Virus record (IMG/VR): IMGVR_UViG_3300031132_000002
Strand: one strand, 5' to 3'
Length of the DNA: 64,000 bases
Origin: a virus
A program made the translations under genes and the position numbers. The notes beneath the pieces were generated by a model. It saw only the letters and a program-made list of their open reading frames with translations. It searched no databases and was not told where the DNA came from. Of the stretch, positions 30,671-45,733 are shown in pieces; position 1 is the stretch's first letter, and each line of letters begins with the position of its first letter.

Positions 30671-31795
30671 TTAGTTTAAGGCATTACCTGCCTTTTCAAC
30701 ATAATTTAGAATCGTCTTAGAACGTTTCTCCAGCGGAGAAGAATTAAACACCTCAGACGGTTCTTTGTTTAGCTTTCTTGCTTGGAACAGTAACCAAGAA
30801 AAAGAAAGATCCTTGACAACGATAGCGAATTTCTTCTGCTCTTCAATGTCTTTAGCTACGTGCCACATAGCATCCGCTTGGTTGATAATCCAAGACTTAG
30901 CTTGAATCACAGGATCGAAATACTTCTTATCTTCTGGGAAGTAAGCCAAATACTCATCTTCTTCGCCAACAGCCACCAGATCTACAATTCGTTTCAGTGA
31001 TGGGATACCATTACCACGTAGATGATGAACAGCCACGTATGCTGGAGATTTAACTTTGCACACAGGGATGCCATCTTGATAAACAACATAACCTTCTGCC
31101 AAGTTAGGAAGTTTCTCTGCTGTCTCCTTACAGGCTTGAGCACTATCAAACTTATACTTCTTAACGTCAAGCCAGTTCATAACCCATAAAGAGTTACCTG
31201 GCACTGTTACATATTCGCCAGTATCATTCCGACGAGCACCTAAGAAGTGGAGATCATAACCCTCATATACCGTGACAACTCGGTTTTCACGACAAGTAAG
31301 TTCCAGGAGATATGTTACTCCACGGTCAAGGTCAGCCAGTTCTGCTGACGCCTCTACTTCTTCCATATAGTTAGCGTCAGAAGCTTTTACGCACAGATCG
31401 TGAAATGTGTATTCACTATTCATACATTGACTTTCAGCGAAGGCAGTACCACGAGTGGAGAAATGCCAAGCATCATTCCAATAATACAGCTTGATCAAGC
31501 TACCATCAATCTTATCTGCAATCTCCGCTATATCCCAATCTAAATGCGCCTGTGTCTCCGGCGCTTCATTGAGGTTGAAGAATCGGTCAAATGCACGAGC
31601 AACTACATTAAACTCCCTGTCGAGGATAAGTGCTCGGCACTCCATAACCAGAGGGTGCGTTTTAGGGCTATCGATCTGATCGTAGTTCAGGACATAAAGC
31701 CCTTCTTCTGGATACTCTTTCACCTTGATACCAGTAGATAAGGTTAACAGCGTCAGTGAGTTACCAGGTGTTTTCAGGAAGTCTGTTACTTGCAT
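30671..31795 (-). CDS. RNA ligase 1 (T4 Rnl1-like)
   Basis: ECRALIL, FDRFFNLNE, KIDGSLI, LLEL, EGYVV, KVKS..Y. Confidence 0.9.
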   Translation of the reverse strand: MQVTDFLKTPGNSLTLLTLSTGIKVKEYPEEGLYVLNYDQIDSPKTHPLVMECRALILDREFNVVARAFDRFFNLNEAPETQAHLDWDIAEIADKIDGSLIKLYYWNDAWHFSTRGTAFAESQCMNSEYTFHDLCVKASDANYMEEVEASAELADLDRGVTYLLELTCRENRVVTVYEGYDLHFLGARRNDTGEYVTVPGNSLWVMNWLDVKKYKFDSAQACKETAEKLPNLAEGYVVYQDGIPVCKVKSPAYVAVHHLRGNGIPSLKRIVDLVAVGEEDEYLAYFPEDKKYFDPVIQAKSWIINQADAMWHVAKDIEEQKKFAIVVKDLSFSWLLFQARKLNKEPSEVFNSSPLEKRSKTILNYVEKAGNALN

Positions 31796-31808
31796 TTTAA
31801 TTCTCCTC

Positions 31809-32831
31809 TTACAGTTTAGCCATATACCATTTACGAGATTTGTCAGAGATATTCTTACCAACATCTTTCATCGTCAAGCTGGATGCTTCCATAACATCAC
31901 CTTCTTCTTTAAGAATATCGGTGCTCATCCACTTAACAAACTCGCCAATCTTAGTCTTATCAAGGCCAACTTCACCCAGAGCCTGATTCAGGCGATTTTC
32001 AGTAACAGCGTATTCTACAAACTCTGTGATGTTTGCCATACGTTCTGGGTCAACACTGGCTAAGGTTTTGACCTTAGAGACAGAATGCTTATCACCTTTG
32101 ACTTTAAACCATAGTCCTGAATCAAGAGCTAAAGATTCATCTGCTGGTGTCCAAACAAAACCTTCACCGATACCGGAGATACCAAAGAACTTACCAACTG
32201 GACATTCTTTTTCAGCCTCTTCGGTGATCTGTACAAGCGTGTTCTGAATCAACTCTGGTTTTTCAAAGTCAATGTTCAGTGTGACGAAACCAAACTGCAA
32301 CACGTTAAAGATACGTGCTTCATTGTCATTTACGCTACCAATGATACCAGTAGGAAGCCATTTCAGACCACCGTTAGGGCGTTCACCAACCGCTACGCGG
32401 AACACAGTGAAGAAAGGATCTAGCTCAGTTACAGCAACACCTTTCTGGATGCCACGGCCTGCCCATTCGCCAGCGATTTCAACAGGGAACTCAAATGTGA
32501 TACCTTTCTCTTCACAGATATCTTTCACTTGGCCCAGAAGTTTAGCCATATCTTTCCGATGCATAAATGCTGCAAACCCAGCGTTGTCTTTACCGATATC
32601 CACCTGCTGCGCTTTAGACTGGAAGATAAACTCATCTTCTGAGCGGAACAGTACGCTACCATTTGTACCGTGGATTTTAACCGTACCGACATAAGGGATG
32701 ACGTAAGTTTCTGGAATCTTAGTGACGTGCTCCTGAGTTTCAGGATTGTAATGATCATACTCAAGTTGAGTTTTCATTGTACGTACAACCTGACGGAATT
32801 GATTTGTGCTCGGGTATTTTACATTGCTCAT
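31809..32831 (-). CDS. RNA ligase 2-family protein
   Basis: KYPS, VKIHGTN, GEWAG.GIQKG, EGFVW, FKVK. Confidence 0.85.
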   Translation of the reverse strand: MSNVKYPSTNQFRQVVRTMKTQLEYDHYNPETQEHVTKIPETYVIPYVGTVKIHGTNGSVLFRSEDEFIFQSKAQQVDIGKDNAGFAAFMHRKDMAKLLGQVKDICEEKGITFEFPVEIAGEWAGRGIQKGVAVTELDPFFTVFRVAVGERPNGGLKWLPTGIIGSVNDNEARIFNVLQFGFVTLNIDFEKPELIQNTLVQITEEAEKECPVGKFFGISGIGEGFVWTPADESLALDSGLWFKVKGDKHSVSKVKTLASVDPERMANITEFVEYAVTENRLNQALGEVGLDKTKIGEFVKWMSTDILKEEGDVMEASSLTMKDVGKNISDKSRKWYMAKL

Positions 32832-32832
32832 A

Positions 32833-33747
32833 TTAATTTCCTCCTACTTCGTGATGATCCCAGCTAACAATGCGTTTATTAGCCATAACTTTTCCTACTT
32901 CTGCCATAGAGACAGGGCGTAGGGATTTGGTGATACCTACAGTAGCATCTACTCCAACATCCATTGCCTTGCCCATATGTTGTTCCATTGCATTGCTACC
33001 GTGACAGTGACCAAACAGGTGCCAACTGTCTTTATGCATATCATCCCAACTTAAGATTGGGAAGTGACACATAGCAATCTTCTGCCCGTTCAGTGTAGTG
33101 CAAAAATAACTGCTGTCAACAAACTTTTGCTTAGGTAGGTTTACATCATAGTATTCCCACTCTTTTTCGCTGACGTGATTACCTTTCAGATGAATAATAA
33201 AACCGTTCAACTGCTCAAGTAGTTTCAAGCCTTTCGTCATACTACCAAGAGTGAGATCTCCCAGGTCAAACACTAAATCGTTAGGCTTCACCTGTTTATT
33301 CCACTCGTCGATAATCAACTGGTGCATCGTATCAATATCCGCAATGTGTTCGCGGTTATGTCGCAAAATGTTCTTATGAAGAAAGTGAACATCAGATACG
33401 AAGTGTACATTATCTTCCGAATAATGCAAGTCTTTCATTTGGTTTTTACGCAGAGCCTGTCTTTCTACATCAACAGCTTTTGCCCAATAAACATTACCTT
33501 TGATATAACCAAACCAAGGATAAATCCTGGCTAAGATAGGGCGACGACTTGGCTTACGGCCTGTTGACACGTAAAAATCAAACAATTCGTCAAAGATATC
33601 TCCGTCAAAGGACACCATCTCTTCGAAGATCATTACTGGAACCTTTCCAGTGAAAAGAGCCTTTCGTGCTAATACACGATCCATAGGTTCTTGTAGCTCT
33701 TCTCGGTAAGCCCTGAGGTAATCTAGTTTAATACTCACATCAGACAT
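32833..33747 (-). CDS. calcineurin-like metallophosphoesterase with N-terminal extension
   Basis: SDVHFLH, LGDL, GNH, CHFP, GHCH, DVGVD. Confidence 0.88.
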   Translation of the reverse strand: MSDVSIKLDYLRAYREELQEPMDRVLARKALFTGKVPVMIFEEMVSFDGDIFDELFDFYVSTGRKPSRRPILARIYPWFGYIKGNVYWAKAVDVERQALRKNQMKDLHYSEDNVHFVSDVHFLHKNILRHNREHIADIDTMHQLIIDEWNKQVKPNDLVFDLGDLTLGSMTKGLKLLEQLNGFIIHLKGNHVSEKEWEYYDVNLPKQKFVDSSYFCTTLNGQKIAMCHFPILSWDDMHKDSWHLFGHCHGSNAMEQHMGKAMDVGVDATVGITKSLRPVSMAEVGKVMANKRIVSWDHHEVGGN

Positions 33748-42363: not shown

Positions 42364-42440
42364 GCTCCGTTAGCGCAATTGGATAGCGCAAGAGATTTCT
42401 ACTCTCTAGGTTGGGGGTTCGAGTCCCTCACGGAGTGCCA
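42364..42440 (+). tRNA. tRNA-Arg(TCT)
   Basis: Cloverleaf; AGAGA-TT TCT AC-TCTCT; CCA encoded. Confidence 0.92.
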
Positions 42441-42637
42441 GTTTGCGTCTGGTATATGCGTTGATTTAGAATTGTAGCGTTTGTAGACTAGCCTTCTTGT
42501 CGAGCACAATCTAATGAAATATACAAGCCATCGTTTTTAAAAGTTATTGTAACTTTTTGTTTTCCGATCATAGTAAGTAACCCCGCTTGCGGCGACAGAG
42601 GGGTACAATTTCAAATAATCATATAAGGAGAGACATA

Positions 42638-42814
42638 ATGGGTAAGAAAGTAAGCGCAGTAGATAAGATCATTCAGCCTTTCCAGTTTGAGAGCAAGTCT
42701 ACTCAGACCGAAAGCAAGCCAGTAGAAATGACCATTAACGGCGAAGTGAAGAAAGTGTCTCACCGTATCCGTACTGGTAAAACGAAGCGTGAACGCGCTC
42801 GCTCTGGTAAGTAG
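42638..42814 (+). CDS. small basic protein
   Basis: AAGGAG SD; MGKKVSAVDK...RIRTGKTKRERARSGK. Confidence 0.7.
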   Translation: MGKKVSAVDKIIQPFQFESKSTQTESKPVEMTINGEVKKVSHRIRTGKTKRERARSGK

Positions 42815-42902
42815 TAAATAGTTTAAAATAGTTGTTGACAGATAATCAAATACGTGGTACATTGGTATTAAGTAGAGAAGATTGTTAGTTAACAACTACT
42901 TA

Positions 42903-42992
42903 GGAAGATAGGGTTTATGGTAAACAACTGGTCTTGAAAACCAGCCCATCGGTTAGTAGCTGGTGATGGTTCGATTCCATTATCTTCCTCCA
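42903..42992 (+). tRNA. tRNA-Ser(TGA)
   Basis: CTGGT-CT TGA AA-ACCAG, long variable arm, CCA. Confidence 0.92.
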
Positions 42993-42997
42993 AATTT

Positions 42998-43073
42998 GGG
43001 GATATAGTTTAGCTGGTAAAAATACTGGACTGTCACTTCGGAGCCACGGGTTCGATTCCCGTTATCCCCGCCA
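42998..43073 (+). tRNA. tRNA-Asp(GTC)
   Basis: CTGGA-CT GTC AC-TTCGG; G73; CCA. Confidence 0.92.
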
Positions 43074-43114
43074 ATTAAGATATTGAGTGAGAAATCACAC
43101 CAATAAGAAGTAAT

Positions 43115-43208
43115 GGAGAATTAACCCTAATGGTAAGGGAAGTGTTTGCTAAACACTCAGTAGTCGCGGAAACGCGGCGTATCAGTTCAAGTCTGATATT
43201 CTCCTCCA
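43115..43208 (+). tRNA. tRNA-Ser(GCT)
   Basis: AGTGT-TT GCT AA-ACACT, long variable arm, CCA. Confidence 0.92.
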
Positions 43209-43209
43209 C

Positions 43210-43286
43210 GCATCGCTAGCTAAACTGGATAAGGCATCTGACTTTTAATCAGAATACTGGAGGTTCGAATCCTCCGCGATGCACCA
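43210..43286 (+). tRNA. tRNA-Lys(TTT)
   Basis: TCTGA-CT TTT AA-TCAGA; CCA. Confidence 0.93.
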
Positions 43287-43354
43287 AACAAAAAGTAAAA
43301 TAAATCTTTACTTCTGAATACTTTTATGATAGAGTATTGATAAATAAGGTTTAA

Positions 43355-43436
43355 GGGGATGTGGCGGAGAGGCCGAACGCACCTGACTGTAAATCAGGCA
43401 TACCACGCCCTGGTTCGAATCCAGGCAGCCCCACCA
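43355..43436 (+). tRNA. tRNA-Tyr(GTA)
   Basis: CCTGA-CT GTA AA-TCAGG; CCA. Confidence 0.92.
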
Positions 43437-43441
43437 AATAA

Positions 43442-43527
43442 TGAAATCGAAATAAGGGAAGACGAGATGGCGTGATCTATATCACTCAGTCCTTCGGGGA
43501 TACAAGCTCGAAAAGTAGATTTCACCA
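43442..43527 (+). ncRNA. CCA-ended multibranch RNA, not a cloverleaf
   Basis: TGAAATC/GATTTCA-CCA closing stem; CGAG/CTCG enclosing GTGAT-CTAT-ATCAC and a CC-TTCG-GG hairpin. Confidence 0.55.
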
Positions 43528-43533
43528 AACAAC

Positions 43534-43609
43534 GATTCTATAGCTATAATGGTAGAGCAGTGGACTGTTAATCCACCGGTTGCAGGTTCGAGTCCTGCTA
43601 GGATCGCCA
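43534..43609 (+). tRNA. tRNA-Asn(GTT)
   Basis: GTGGA-CT GTT AA-TCCAC; G73; CCA. Confidence 0.93.
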
Positions 43610-43615
43610 AATAAT

Positions 43616-43691
43616 GCTTGTATAGCTCAGTAGGTAGAGCAGTTGCCTTGTAAGCATCAGGTCACGAGTTCGATTCTTGTTGCAAGCACCA
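43616..43691 (+). tRNA. tRNA-Thr(TGT)
   Basis: GTTGC-CT TGT AA-GCATC; CCA. Confidence 0.92.
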
Positions 43692-43705
43692 AATTATCAA
43701 GCGAA

Positions 43706-43756
43706 CGCGCCTGATGAGTCTTTGAAATAAGACGAAACGCTGTGAAGCGTAGCGCG
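43706..43756 (+). ncRNA. type I hammerhead ribozyme (predicted cleavage after GUA, position 43751)
   Basis: Stem I CGCGC/GCGCG; core CTGATGA; stem II GTCTT-TGAAAT-AAGAC; GAAA; stem III CGCT-GTGA-AGCG; U16.1-A17. Confidence 0.9.
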
Positions 43757-43767
43757 GAGTATCCCAA

Positions 43768-43876
43768 GAAGGGGAATAACTGGATACCAGTAGAGACTTC
43801 TCTAAGTATTTTCCAACGAGAATATTTAGAGCGTGGGTGTGCAATGTCTCTATATGCAGCACACAGCTAGCCCTTC
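43768..43876 (+). ncRNA. putative pseudoknotted structured RNA
   Basis: GAAGGG/CCCTTC; ACTGG-ATA-CCAGT; AGAGAC/GTCTCT; 14-bp hairpin 43800-43831; crossing pair GTGTGC/GCACAC. Confidence 0.6.
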
Positions 43877-43882
43877 AACATT

Positions 43883-43959
43883 GCGAGTTTAACTCAGTCT
43901 GGTAGAGTGTCTGCCTTCCAAGCAGTTCGTCATCGGTTCGAATCCGATATCTCGCTCCA
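43883..43959 (+). tRNA. tRNA-Gly(TCC)
   Basis: CTGC-CT TCC AA-GCAG; U73; CCA. Confidence 0.92.
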
Positions 43960-43965
43960 AATTAT

Positions 43966-44053
43966 ATCGTGGTATACAAATTGGCCTAAGTAACCAGACT
44001 TTCAATCTGGCGCAGTTTTCTGCTTACGGGTTCGAATCCCGTCCACGATACCA
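43966..44053 (+). tRNA. type II tRNA with TTC (Glu) anticodon on a Leu-like body
   Basis: ATCGTGG/CCACGAT-A-CCA; CCAGA-CT TTC AA-TCTGG; variable arm GCAG-TTTT-CTGC. Confidence 0.8.
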
Positions 44054-44058
44054 AAAAA

Positions 44059-44130
44059 GAAGCTATAGTTTAATGCAAAACTTGTCACTTCCGAGATTGA
44101 CAAATGAAGATTTATCTTCTAGCTTCACCA
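44059..44130 (+). ncRNA. degenerate tRNA-like RNA
   Basis: GAAGCTA/TAGCTTC-A-CCA; D arm GTTT/AAAC; TTGTCA-10-nt loop-TGACAA; T arm GAAGA-TTTA-TCTTC lacking TTC. Confidence 0.65.
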
Positions 44131-44136
44131 AATTAT

Positions 44137-44283
44137 CGGATAGATGCAATATGAAAGTGCAGCGTTAGGGTTCGCAAGTTGGCGCTTGTTTGACTAACAA
44201 AACATAATTAGTATGGGCATTTCAAGAATACATAGCCTCGCCAAAGGAGATGTAAGAAGGTTCGACTCCTTCCTGTTCGCCCA
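44137..44283 (+). ncRNA. tRNA-like RNA (~147 nt) with multi-stem insert
   Basis: CGGATAG/CTGTTCG-C-CCA; GAAGG-TTCGACT-CCTTC T arm; internal hairpins. Confidence 0.65.
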
Positions 44284-44289
44284 AATGAT

Positions 44290-44363
44290 TGGCCTATAGT
44301 GTAGAGGTAGCACAGGAGCCTTTGACTCTCCTAGCCCAAGTTCAATTCTTGGTGGGCCTGCCA
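44290..44363 (+). tRNA. tRNA-Gln(TTG)
   Basis: GGAGC-CT TTG AC-TCTCC; G73; CCA. Confidence 0.9.
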
Positions 44364-44395
44364 AATTTTAGTGCTTTCAATGAGAGCATTAATGT

Positions 44396-44472
44396 GTGGC
44401 TATATCATAATGGCTTAATGACGCTGCTTGTGATGCAGTTCTATGTGGGTTCGAGTCCCATTAGCCACCCCA
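44396..44472 (+). tRNA. tRNA-His(GTG)
   Basis: GCTGC-TT GTG AT-GCAGT; C73; CCA; genomic -1 base is T. Confidence 0.9.
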
Positions 44473-44540
44473 AAAAGCTTATTTACAACTCTAAGTAACT
44501 ATGCTATCATCCTTTTCATTACTAGAATAGGAGATGACGT

Positions 44541-44903
44541 ATGAAAAGTTGTGAGTATTGCAAGAAAGAATTTGAAGTAGTGCGAAAACACGGAGGAAAC
44601 AACAGAACATTTTGTTTTGATTGTGTTCCAGAAGGCTTAACCAAGAGCGAGAGAGCTAGAGTACATCAAGATATTCGTGGTATCAGATCTAAGCTTATGA
44701 AATTAGAATTAGGTTGTCACGTATGTGGTTATAAAAGATGTTCCGAGGCTTTAGAGTGGCATCACCCTACAAGTGATAAACTTCACGATCCTTCTAACGC
44801 TATTAAGAGATCTTGGGAAGCATATTTATTAGAGATTAAAAAGTGTATTCTTCTTTGCTCAAACTGTCACAGAGAAGTGCATTCAAATATTATCAGTCTG
44901 TAG
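44541..44903 (+). CDS. HNH (homing) endonuclease
   Basis: CEYC..CFDC; CHVCG...LEWHH...KCILLCSNCHREVH. Confidence 0.9.
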   Translation: MKSCEYCKKEFEVVRKHGGNNRTFCFDCVPEGLTKSERARVHQDIRGIRSKLMKLELGCHVCGYKRCSEALEWHHPTSDKLHDPSNAIKRSWEAYLLEIKKCILLCSNCHREVHSNIISL

Positions 44904-44970
44904 CGCAGCCAGGTAGCGTGATTCCTTTGGAAGGAATGGGTCGTAGGTTCAAATCCTACCGGACTGACCA
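44894..44970 (+). tRNA. tRNA-Pro(TGG)
   Basis: CAGTCTG/CGGACTG-A-CCA; ATTCC-TT TGG AA-GGAAT. Confidence 0.92.
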
Positions 44971-45004
44971 AACAATAGAAATCGAAGATGGTATCGGTTT
45001 CAAA

Positions 45005-45079
45005 GCGACTTTGACATAGACGGATGTGTGCTGCCCTGAAAAGGCAGAAAGGCTGGATCGTTACCAGCAGGTCGCACCA
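45005..45079 (+). tRNA. tRNA-Phe(GAA)
   Basis: CTGCC-CT GAA AA-GGCAG; atypical T loop ATCGTTA; CCA. Confidence 0.85.
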
Positions 45080-45083
45080 TTTT

Positions 45084-45156
45084 GCAGGTGTCCTGATGGA
45101 CAGGCAACACTCTACGAAGGTGTTTGTTCGAGGTTCGAATCCTTGCATCTGCACCA
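45084..45156 (+). tRNA. tRNA-Arg(ACG), compact non-canonical D arm
   Basis: GCAGGTG/CATCTGC-A-CCA; 1-nt connector; CCTG-ATGGA-CAGG; AACACT-CT ACG AA-GGTGTT. Confidence 0.8.
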
Positions 45157-45240
45157 TATCAAGGCTACGATTCCCTAATTGAAGATAGGATTCTGATAGG
45201 GCCGTGGATAATGCTTTTAGTTTAAAGCTGATTTAACAAT

Positions 45241-45322
45241 AGCGGTATAGTGAAACGGACATATAGATCACACTAGGCTCATACCCTAGTAATTGCGGGT
45301 TCGACTCCCGCTACCGCAACCA
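45241..45322 (+). tRNA. tRNA-Met(CAT), initiator-like
   Basis: A1/A72 mismatch; CTAGG-CT CAT AC-CCTAG; enlarged D loop; CCA. Confidence 0.85.
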
Positions 45323-45329
45323 AACAAAT

Positions 45330-45414
45330 GCTCTTGTGGCGAAATTGGTAGACGCACCAGATTTAGAATCTGGCGTTGAGAGACGTGTGAGTTCGAGTCT
45401 CACCAAGAGCACCA
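45330..45414 (+). tRNA. tRNA-Leu(TAG)
   Basis: GCG-AAATTGGTAGA-CGC D arm; CCAGA-TT TAG AA-TCTGG; variable arm; A73; CCA. Confidence 0.93.
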
Positions 45415-45420
45415 AACAAT

Positions 45421-45565
45421 GTCGTAGTGATACAAAGCGAAAGAAAGATGGTTACGAGATACTTCCTCGACGGAGGTGGTGATGTGATTAATCGCTGGAG
45501 TAATGAGGATCACAGGTGGAGTTGATCGCCTTCTCTGAGAGGTTCGAATCCTTTCTACGATGCCA
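45421..45565 (+). ncRNA. tRNA-like RNA (~145 nt) with multi-stem insert
   Basis: GTCGTAG/CTACGAT-G-CCA; AGAGG-TTCGAAT-CCTTT T arm; hairpins ACTTCC/GGAGGT, GGTGAT/ATCGCT, GATCA/TGATC. Confidence 0.65.
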
Positions 45566-45571
45566 ATCAAT

Positions 45572-45652
45572 GCGTGGGTCACTAATCCTGGTGGTCAGGA
45601 GACGGCTTCCAAACCCGTTAGTTCAGGTGTTCGAATCATCACCTACGTGCCA
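45572..45652 (+). tRNA. tRNA-Trp(CCA)-like, atypical 8/4 fold
   Basis: GCGTGGGT/ACCTACGT-G-CCA; TCCTG-GTGGT-CAGGA; ACGG-C-TT CCA AA-C-CCGT; GGTG-TTCGAAT-CATC. Confidence 0.7.
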
Positions 45653-45657
45653 AATAT

Positions 45658-45733
45658 GGGAATATAATTCAGTTGGTAGAATGCTCGACCGATAATCGAG
45701 TCGTCACTGGTTCGAGTCCAGTTATTCCCACCA
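45658..45733 (+). tRNA. tRNA-Ile(GAT)
   Basis: CTCGA-CC GAT AA-TCGAG (C33); CCA. Confidence 0.9.

Follow-up and report, generated by a model that had tools for sequence, protein, structure and literature searches.

A long-armed tRNA-Glu in the tRNA array of a Stephanstirmvirinae-like phage and its relatives

Results and Discussion

Structure of the tRNA-Glu gene

Reviews consider long variable arms in bacteria to be confined to tRNAs for Leu, Ser, Tyr and Sec (PMC7609411, PMC9976931), and a shortened variable loop is counted as an identity determinant for the glutamyl-tRNA synthetase (GluRS) of Escherichia coli (PMC9976931). Here we analyze a tRNA-Glu gene with a long variable arm in IMG/VR virus record IMGVR_UViG_3300031132_000002, a stretch of 64,000 nucleotides (nt) that is referred to as the window. 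ARAGORN called the 88-nt gene as tRNA-Glu(ttc), and it matches Rfam family RF00005 with 53.8 bits (E 6.4e-10), compared to a gathering score of 29. Coordinates of the gene and of its arms are listed in Table 1.

The acceptor stem begins with the pairs A1-U72, U2-A71 and C3-G70, U8 and A9 are present, and the acceptor/T branch has the standard 7/5 architecture. In the D arm, A13 and A22 face each other unpaired and the loop contains A14, A15 and G18G19. The anticodon loop C-U-UUC-A-A (43999-44005) holds the anticodon UUC at 44001-44003, followed by A37 at 44004. The variable region carries its own stem-loop and exceeds 10 nt, the lower limit for class II shape, and its last nucleotide, U48, adjoins the T stem. 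Free-energy folding resulted in the same stems as those drawn by ARAGORN (-25.6 kcal/mol, z = -2.87).

A first-pass annotation, made from the sequence alone, had described a perfect acceptor, A73, the paired arm GCAG-TTTT-CTGC and the loop CU-UUC-AA, all of which are recovered in the ARAGORN bracket and in the fold; its view of the gene as a class II-shaped tRNA with a Glu anticodon likewise agrees with ARAGORN and Rfam. The anticodon stem CCAGA/UCUGG, which it had noticed in tRNA-Leu(TAG) at 45330 as well, is indeed identical in the two tRNAs. There is also no ordinary tRNA-Glu among the ARAGORN and Rfam calls of the cluster, as it had stated, and the long form is the sole Glu decoder of the array. 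The possibility that the arm is an intron was set aside: the hairpin has 10-12 nt and shows neither a bulge-helix-bulge motif nor group I features, and bacteria are not known to have a splicing endonuclease for an intron of this kind.

Table 1. Features of the tRNA-Glu gene and related tRNA loci (positions in the window; those of tRNA-Asn are given by locus)
Feature	Position	Strand	Basis
tRNA-Glu(UUC), long variable arm, CCA encoded	43966..44053	+	ARAGORN, Rfam, family covariation
Acceptor 5' strand AUCGUGG	43966..43972	+	Pairs with 44043-44049 (CCACGAU), 7/7 bp; ARAGORN bracket
D arm, stem UAC/GUA 3 bp, loop AAUUGGCCUA	43975..43992	+	ARAGORN bracket, gltT alignment
Anticodon arm CCAGA-CUUUCAA-UCUGG	43994..44010	+	Sequence, ARAGORN bracket
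Variable arm, 15 nt: C, stem GCAG/CUGC (4 bp), loop UUUU, UU	44011..44025	+	Fold, ARAGORN bracket
T arm ACGGG-UUCGAAU-CCCGU	44026..44042	+	ARAGORN bracket, family covariation
Discriminator A73, then encoded 3' CCA	44050..44053	+	Sequence, ARAGORN bracket
tRNA gene array	42364..45733	+	ARAGORN 17 tRNAs; Rfam adds 2
Long-arm tRNA-Asn loci	L001 884-968, L002 720-804, L003 2335-2419, L004 1232-1317, L105 2788-2872, L106 3097-3181		

Orthologs and the anticodon

Contigs of four runs, each from a different study, carry the tRNA-Glu gene of the window without a single difference. BLAST searches with the 88-nt gene as a query, in which the anticodon was left unconstrained, identified orthologs over the full length of the gene in four Klebsiella phages (phi1_175008, KP13-26, FKP3, KP2025), in Tr1 of Citrobacter and in an uncultured phage of 642 kb. 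All of them have UUC, the loop CUUUCAA and a long arm. Their stems have diverged by compensatory changes: the acceptor reads AUAGUGG/CCACUAU (e.g., in FKP3), the anticodon stem reads CUAGA/UCUAG in FKP3 and Tr1, the T stem reads AUGGG/CCCAU, and the arms differ yet pair (GUAG-GAAA-CUAC, GAGG-GAAA-CCUC and CAC-GAAA-GUG). The first-pass annotation had proposed a check of anticodons in relatives, taking a Leu anticodon as a sign of recent mutation or sequencing error. No ortholog has one, and since they keep UUC with compensatory stem changes, a recently mutated tRNA-Leu does not account for the gene; an error is excluded by the identity across four studies.

Within Stephanstirmvirinae (phi92/phAPEC8-like phages), whose gene order the window shares, the gene is patchy. 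A tRNA for Glu is lacking altogether in Klebsiella phage 05F01 and in the E. coli phage alia, and the subfamily members having a Glu tRNA always have the long form. The Gly-Gln spacer of alia was searched for remains of a decayed copy, and no convincing alignment resulted. The ortholog was left unannotated in Tr1 and KP2025, and annotation pipelines handle such long-arm tRNA genes inconsistently. In the 642-kb phage (LR756502.1), a long-arm tRNA-Glu(UUC), a short tRNA-Glu(UUC), a tRNA-Glu(CUC) and two tRNA-Tyr are found side by side (L005 2496-2932). This phage also encodes two proteins of the GluRS/GlnRS family (L314, L315).

A family of long-arm tRNA-Glu in phages

A scan of IMG/VR for the pattern CTTTCAA, a 20-32-nt gap and GGTTCGAATCC matched 99 stretches. 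On the fetched loci, ARAGORN called 58 long tRNA-Glu(ttc) genes (at least 80 nt), at least 47 of them distinct. Across 18 diverse members, pairing is seen in 99.7% of stem cells, and both sides have changed in 16 of the 20 pairs; the covariation score is 0.763, whereas shuffles reach 0.213 and slid partners no more than 0.074. Pairing of the family is far beyond chance, and the whole cloverleaf including the arm is under selection.

A variable-region hairpin of at least 3 bp is present in 43 of the 47 distinct members. Stems are mostly 4-8 bp, the loops are often of GNRA type (GAAA 13 times, GUAA 4 times), and the hairpin is usually flanked by one unpaired nucleotide on the 5' side and by one to three on the 3' side. 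Arm length ranges from 12 to 22 nt, and arm sequence and linker lengths are variable. A73 is found in 44 of the 47 members; 31 members begin their acceptor with a G.U pair and 9 with A-U. Most members have a plainly Glu-type D arm (GACU...AGGUC, U13.G22).

Many of the loci carry more than one tRNA relevant here. A short tRNA-Glu is also present in the fetched stretch of 29 out of 52 IMG/VR loci with a long-arm tRNA-Glu, and this coexistence suggests that long and short forms are not equivalent. In 34 of the 52 loci, ARAGORN called a further long-arm tRNA that is not Leu, Ser, Tyr or Glu; among these are Gln, Asn, Asp, Met and Cys as well as a number of tRNAs without an assignable anticodon. 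A scan for the short-arm pattern gave at least 119 matches. A narrower pattern was found in 23 IMG/VR loci versus just two places in cellular genomes, both in dense tRNA arrays, in a sample with a single genome per species (185,579 species of bacteria and archaea). By its distribution, long-arm tRNA-Glu is essentially a feature of phages and mobile arrays.

Long arms were also observed on tRNA-Asn(GUU) of 85-86 nt, whose paired arm covaries, in FKP3, phi1_175008, PVP-SE1, Tr1, alia and 05F01 (Table 1). The tRNA-Asn of the window itself (43534-43609) is ordinary and has 76 nt.

Glutamate codons of the phage

GAA is the top codon in 68 open reading frames (ORFs) of the window (46.9 per 1000), and GAA and GAG together make up 7.3% of their codons; the window has a GC content of 42.6%. 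Terminase, portal, head protein and one more structural protein were aligned with those of 05F01, a phage without this tRNA. GAA and GAG of the window face Glu at 90 of the 131 aligned positions and face Leu at one, and on this alignment they demonstrably mean Glu in this phage. Codon reassignment is excluded and heavy Leu misincorporation is implausible. Appreciable insertion of Leu or Tyr at these codons would damage nearly every phage protein. The first-pass annotation had suggested charging with Leu and misreading of GAA/GAG; because GAA is the commonest codon and means Glu, such mistranslation is unlikely.

Ancestry of the tRNA body

The body had initially been described as Leu-like, and the D loop A14 A15 U16 U17 G18 G19 does resemble that of tRNA-Leu. 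Raw pairwise identity of the core was tried as a test of ancestry and rejected, as Glu and Leu were inseparable (0.68 vs 0.69). Profile scoring was used instead, with isotype hidden Markov models built from phage tRNAs co-resident in the loci of the first scan after removal of the anticodon loop and the variable region. The core of the window tRNA-Glu scored 51.9 bits with the long Glu profile, 28.5 with short Glu, 21.8 with Asp, 20.0 with Leu, 15.5 with Tyr and 11.5 with Ser. As a control, the true tRNA-Leu of the window scored 52.2 bits with the Leu profile, and the right isotype came first for 11 of the 16 other window tRNAs. The likeness to tRNA-Leu thus proved superficial, the core being a better fit to short phage tRNA-Glu.

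An anticodon-blind scan for the D arm and T arm (ACAAAYYGG, a 28-50-nt gap and GGGTTCGAWYCCC) led to 64 ARAGORN tRNAs, of which 50 were Glu(ttc), 48 of them short, 10 were Leu, two were Ser and one was Arg. A short tRNA-Glu of the type found in phage PVP-SE1 and in T5-sized IMG/VR records is similar to the window tRNA-Glu in its 3-bp D stem with A11-U24 and A13.A22, its D loop AAAYUGG..., its T arm and its CUUUCAA loop. The position between tRNA-Gly and tRNA-Gln is also comparable, with the order Gly-Glu(77 nt)-Trp-Gln in PVP-SE1 and Gly-long Glu-tRNA-like element-Gln in the window. The PVP-SE1 type differs in that its variable loop has 5 nt, its acceptor is similar to that of E. coli (G1-C72, U2-A71, C3-G70) and position 73 is G, where the window tRNA-Glu has the 15-nt arm, A1-U72 and A73. 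Synteny, the anticodon-blind scan and the isotype profiles favor a Glu ancestry, and the simplest history would be insertion of a hairpin into the variable loop of a short phage tRNA-Glu.

The reverse oddity, class II identity in class I shape, was also detected: IMG/VR loci L139 and L182 contain tRNA-Leu(CAA) and tRNA-Leu(TAG) of 76-77 nt with short variable loops and a D-arm/T-arm body of tRNA-Glu type.

Identity elements and charging

Identity elements were read by alignment with E. coli gltT, using rules for E. coli enzymes from which the phage's own host may differ (PMC9976931). E. coli GluRS has strong determinants U34, U35, C36 and A37, weak determinants G1-C72 and U2-A71, and an augmented D helix with U11-A24, U13.G22..A46 and no residue 47, while N73 is not required (PMC9976931). 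All four strong determinants are present in the window tRNA-Glu; of the weak ones U2-A71 is present and A1-U72 stands in place of G1-C72. Other features common with gltT are UUC, C32, C3-G70, the 7/5 architecture and the T loop UUCGAAU. gltT differs by a 4-nt variable loop without residue 47, a four-position D helix with U11-A24 and U13.G22, G1-C72 and G73.

Several features weigh against charging with glutamate. The augmented D helix is missing, with A11-U24, A13.A22 and a 15-nt arm despite the rule of no residue 47; short phage tRNA-Glu of the PVP-SE1 type is likewise without these D-helix determinants. E. coli leucyl-tRNA synthetase (LeuRS) needs A73 and the tertiary core but neither the anticodon nor the arm, and A73, A15-U48 and G18G19 in the Leu-type position are all present in the window tRNA-Glu, so the first-pass annotation was justified in holding that the body would suit this enzyme (PMC9976931). 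The arm geometry is Leu-like, with one unpaired nucleotide on the 5' side and two on the 3' side. Tyrosyl-tRNA synthetase (TyrRS) has A73 and U35 as critical elements (PMC9976931), and both of these as well as the long arm fit.

Other elements point away from Leu. The D loop continues after G19 with C-C-U-A, which places C at position 20a where LeuRS selection required A, and the beta region of this loop is one nucleotide longer than in the window tRNA-Leu. Neither a Leu anticodon nor a Leu-type core is found, with UUC in all orthologs and a Leu profile score far below that of the true tRNA-Leu. For Tyr the elements are mixed: beside the fitting A73, U35 and arm, position 34 is U where the rule is G34, position 36 is C, and the profile score is 15.5 bits. 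Expressed as unpaired nucleotides on the 5' and 3' sides, the arm geometry is 1/2 in 59 of 94 phage tRNA-Leu and 1/3 in 29 of 43 phage tRNA-Tyr, whereas long-arm tRNA-Glu is spread over 1/1, 1/2 and 1/3. This variation, as opposed to the fixed geometry of Leu and Tyr, argues against the arm being read by a synthetase. As judged from these elements, LeuRS or TyrRS might still mischarge it. Four lines of evidence make it quite probable that the window tRNA-Glu is charged with Glu, namely the use of its codons, a core of Glu type, D arms of the same type in the wider family and an arm geometry that varies.

A GluRS/GlnRS domain (PF00749) was detected in none of FKP3, Tr1, a 476-kb record and G001, a 141-kb, 96%-complete IMG/VR record that is a diverged relative of the window (locus L048); the 642-kb phage is the only one with such domains, of which it has two. 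With no GluRS/GlnRS gene in this 96%-complete record, charging of the tRNA-Glu must fall to an enzyme of the host. A BLAST search of E. coli genomes with the tRNA-Glu of PVP-SE1 did not reach host tRNA-Glu genes.

tRNA array and phage genome

The array spans 3.4 kb and contains 17 to 19 tRNA genes, with 6 nt separating tRNA-Glu from the preceding tRNA-Gly and 5 nt from the tRNA-like element that follows. The 5' side of the array has myovirus genes for PRPP synthase and nicotinamide phosphoribosyltransferase, and large terminase, portal, major head protein, tail sheath and tape measure follow downstream. Ribonucleotide reductase, thymidylate synthase, DNA polymerase exonuclease subunit, DNA ligase and two RNA ligases are encoded on the opposite strand. 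The top terminase match is that of 05F01 with 79% amino-acid identity, and when 20 kb of the window served as a megablast query, none of 50,697 phage records proved to be related at the nucleotide level. The stretch is found near-identical in many plant/phyllosphere metagenome runs of several studies.

All 17 tRNA hits of G001 are in one array, and no short tRNA-Glu was found among them anywhere in this 96%-complete record. The Glu gene is 100% identical between the window and G001. The same is true of Lys, Tyr, Gly, Phe and Arg(ACG) in the window array (42364-45733), while Ile, Pro, Gln, Thr and Leu tRNAs are 58-81% identical. The spacers between Thr and Gly also differ in length (191 nt in the window, 510 nt in G001). 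This mosaic suggests that single tRNA genes have been exchanged in a cassette-like manner.

A number of other unusual elements were observed in the array. The tRNA-like element next to tRNA-Glu (44059-44127, plus strand) is degenerate: it has an Rfam score of 36.1 bits and was missed by ARAGORN even with relaxed settings. It has a 7-bp acceptor GAAGCUA/UAGCUUC, A73, CCA, a 10-nt anticodon loop CUUCCGAGAU and a 4-nt T loop, and FKP3 has no counterpart at the matching site. A CAT-anticodon tRNA whose D loop is enlarged to 14 nt (45241-45322, plus strand; Rfam 52.6 bits) is missed by default ARAGORN and miscalled as Ser(act) by relaxed ARAGORN; phi1_175008 and alia have a 79-nt tRNA-Met in the matching place. 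The tRNA-Tyr(GTA) at 43355-43436 (plus strand) has a variable region of just 10 nt, which is stemless according to ARAGORN. A Hammerhead_3 match of Rfam between tRNA-Thr and tRNA-Gly (43698-43743, plus strand) is below threshold (29.1 vs 48.5 bits). The stretch 44174-44283 (plus strand) ends in a canonical T arm GAAGG-UUCGACU-CCUUC and CCA; its anticodon arm is not recognizable, and its sole match is a weak tRNA-Sec of 14.5 bits.

Possible role of the arm

On balance, we lean towards the explanation that this is a working tRNA-Glu of class II shape and class I identity, with an arm whose use may be defensive. It would serve as an elongator tRNA of a Stephanstirmvirinae-like myovirus from plant-surface metagenomes, transcribed within the tRNA operon with no need of CCA addition, charged with glutamate by the host GluRS mainly via U34-U35-C36-A37, and reading GAA/GAG. 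The arm would be a hairpin of 10-12 nt inserted into the variable region of the common short phage tRNA-Glu body. It may sterically shield the phage tRNA from host tRNA-directed defense nucleases, or mark it apart from host tRNA-Glu, and the phage could then still decode its commonest codon when host tRNA-Glu is attacked. Given charging with Glu, we propose this protective or marking function of the arm tentatively and by analogy with known defense systems. A Glu tRNA reshaped to escape a nuclease was the second possibility named in the first-pass annotation, and it is plausible. A further generalization, that arm hairpins on class I tRNAs (Glu; Asn in the relatives; Gln, Asp, Met and Cys) represent a general phage-specific counter-defense, is more doubtful.

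Escape by steric means would fit the RNA ligases of the phage, the substrate preference of Cas13a, the cut site of AriB and the long-arm tRNA-Asn of the relatives. Three adjacent genes (30671-33747, minus strand) encode a phosphoesterase (phrog_547, no Pfam hit), an Rnl2-type (PF09414) and an Rnl1-type (PF09511) RNA ligase, and as judged from their domains they look like a T4-style RNA repair set. Such enzymes are of the class with which T4 mends tRNA cut by the anticodon nuclease PrrC. Activated Cas13a has tRNA-Glu(UUC) among its preferred substrates (PMC11042736). The cut made by AriB of the PARIS system falls at 40/41, next to the variable region, and the contacts of AriB with the tRNA extend past the anticodon stem-loop and include the D loop (PMC12409363); the PARIS target tRNA-Asn(GUU) is the tRNA found to be long-armed in relatives of this phage. 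Two negative results count against a defensive arm. No defense system is known to be blocked by a variable arm, and no partner protein family was enriched near long-arm loci when ORFs within ~5 kb were clustered for 60 long-arm and 64 short-arm loci. The commonest neighbors common to these loci include GIY-YIG homing endonucleases, and the two largest clusters have no Pfam match.

One simple alternative is that the arm is a functionless hairpin on an ordinary Glu tRNA, spread by the mobility of phage tRNA genes. The variation of arm sequence, length and linkers is in line with such a neutral insertion, as is the lack of a partner protein. GluRS is a class I synthetase, and such enzymes generally leave the variable region facing the solvent. 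On the other hand, compensatory change has kept the hairpin over large distances and in several body subtypes, GNRA-type loops recur, and similar arms on phage Asn, Gln, Asp, Met and Cys tRNAs are nearly absent from cellular genomes, a degree of phage specificity that is not expected of a neutral trait. Covariation, restriction to phages, arms on other class I tRNAs, coexistence with short copies and patchiness are marks of an arms-race accessory gene and argue against neutrality, which we regard as rather unlikely. That the gene is an artefact or dead, through a sequencing or assembly error or as a tRNA-Leu pseudogene with a mutated anticodon, has nothing but the unusual shape to recommend it. 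This is refuted by orthologs that keep UUC with covariation, by the identity in four studies and by the identity to G001, where neighboring tRNAs differ by up to 42%, leaving it a negligible prospect.

Another possibility is mistranslation, deliberate or tolerated, in which charging by LeuRS or TyrRS would place Leu or Tyr at GAA/GAG. The shape of the molecule allows for it, with A73, A15-U48, G18G19, an alpha region of 4 nt, 3 bp in the D stem and an arm geometry like that of tRNA-Leu, and so do the indifference of LeuRS to anticodon and arm, the weight of A73 and U35 for TyrRS and the absence of the D-helix determinants of E. coli GluRS; class II tRNAs of nematodes with Gly or Ile anticodons, which are reportedly leucylated in vitro, would be a precedent. 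However, a 7.3% share of Glu codons corresponds to ~29 risky sites per 400-residue protein, and these codons align with Glu in homologs. The core fits Glu profiles over those of Leu or Tyr, C is found at 20a, the D arm of the wider family is plainly Glu-type, its arm geometry is not fixed as in phage Leu and Tyr tRNAs, and the gene has been kept across very distant phages. We consider mistranslation very improbable. Hardly more probable is a non-translating decoy, an RNA that soaks up a host factor of tRNA-Glu such as a nuclease, toxin or modification enzyme. A decoy would agree with the frequent redundancy of the long form, which shares its array with a short tRNA-Glu in 29 of 52 loci, with the gene set of tRNA-repair type and with a suggestion by the PARIS authors that some overexpressed viral tRNAs might inhibit AriB (PMC12409363). 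Yet selection has maintained the perfect acceptor, the encoded CCA, G18G19, a canonical T loop and an anticodon loop of 7 nt containing U33 and A37, features that translation requires and that go beyond the needs of a decoy. The tRNA is moreover the sole Glu tRNA in this phage and in G001, and it would be a poor mimic, as its anticodon stem differs from that of E. coli tRNA-Glu at 3 of 5 pairs (the real host may differ).

Relation to known tRNAs and implications

Bacterial class II tRNAs for Leu, Tyr and Ser have in common with the window tRNA-Glu a long paired arm, a 3-bp D stem, A73 (Leu, Tyr), A15-U48 and the position of G18G19, and tRNA-Leu is also alike in arm size and linkers. The window tRNA-Glu differs from them by its Glu anticodon, a core that fits Glu, the longer beta region (+1 nt) and C20a. 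Nematode nev-tRNAs similarly combine class II shape with the anticodon of a class I amino acid (Gly or Ile), and are said to have Leu-derived bodies. The window tRNA-Glu, in contrast, has a core that scores as derived from Glu, reads the most frequent codon of its phage and is one of many members of a conserved phage family. Allo-tRNAs have long arms too, and anticodons mismatched to bodies of Ser/Leu type. The window tRNA-Glu is not one of them because its acceptor/T branch is 7/5; allo-tRNAs are non-standard metagenome tRNAs with an 8/4 or 9/3 branch (PMC5389517). Variants of phage T5 tRNAs that evade AriB of PARIS or retron-Eco7 are also phage copies differing from the host tRNA (PMC11464382, PMC12409363, PMC11555353). 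They provide the functional model that we prefer for why a phage would retain an unusual tRNA. Their documented escape, however, depends either on point changes within the anticodon stem-loop or on overexpression, and neither PARIS nor the retron is known to target tRNA-Glu. We found no reported case of escape via an added variable arm.

In the literature, we found no description of a long-arm tRNA-Glu or of long-arm phage class I tRNAs, and the window tRNA-Glu is a member of a large, phage-restricted class that apparently has gone undescribed. Orthologs are available in cultured phages of Klebsiella (FKP3, phi1_175008, KP13-26 and KP2025) and Citrobacter (Tr1). If the wider generalization to class I tRNAs is true, these tRNAs would escape by shape and not by point mutation in the anticodon loop, keeping their use by synthetase, EF-Tu and ribosome, and the nucleases or toxins blocked would be those docking on the anticodon stem, the D arm and the core. 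A conserved long-arm tRNA-Glu may indicate that GluRS is laxer than the rules from model organisms, or that charging of phage tRNAs departs from the anticodon. It is also a candidate for a new route by which phages may evade tRNA-cutting defense systems.

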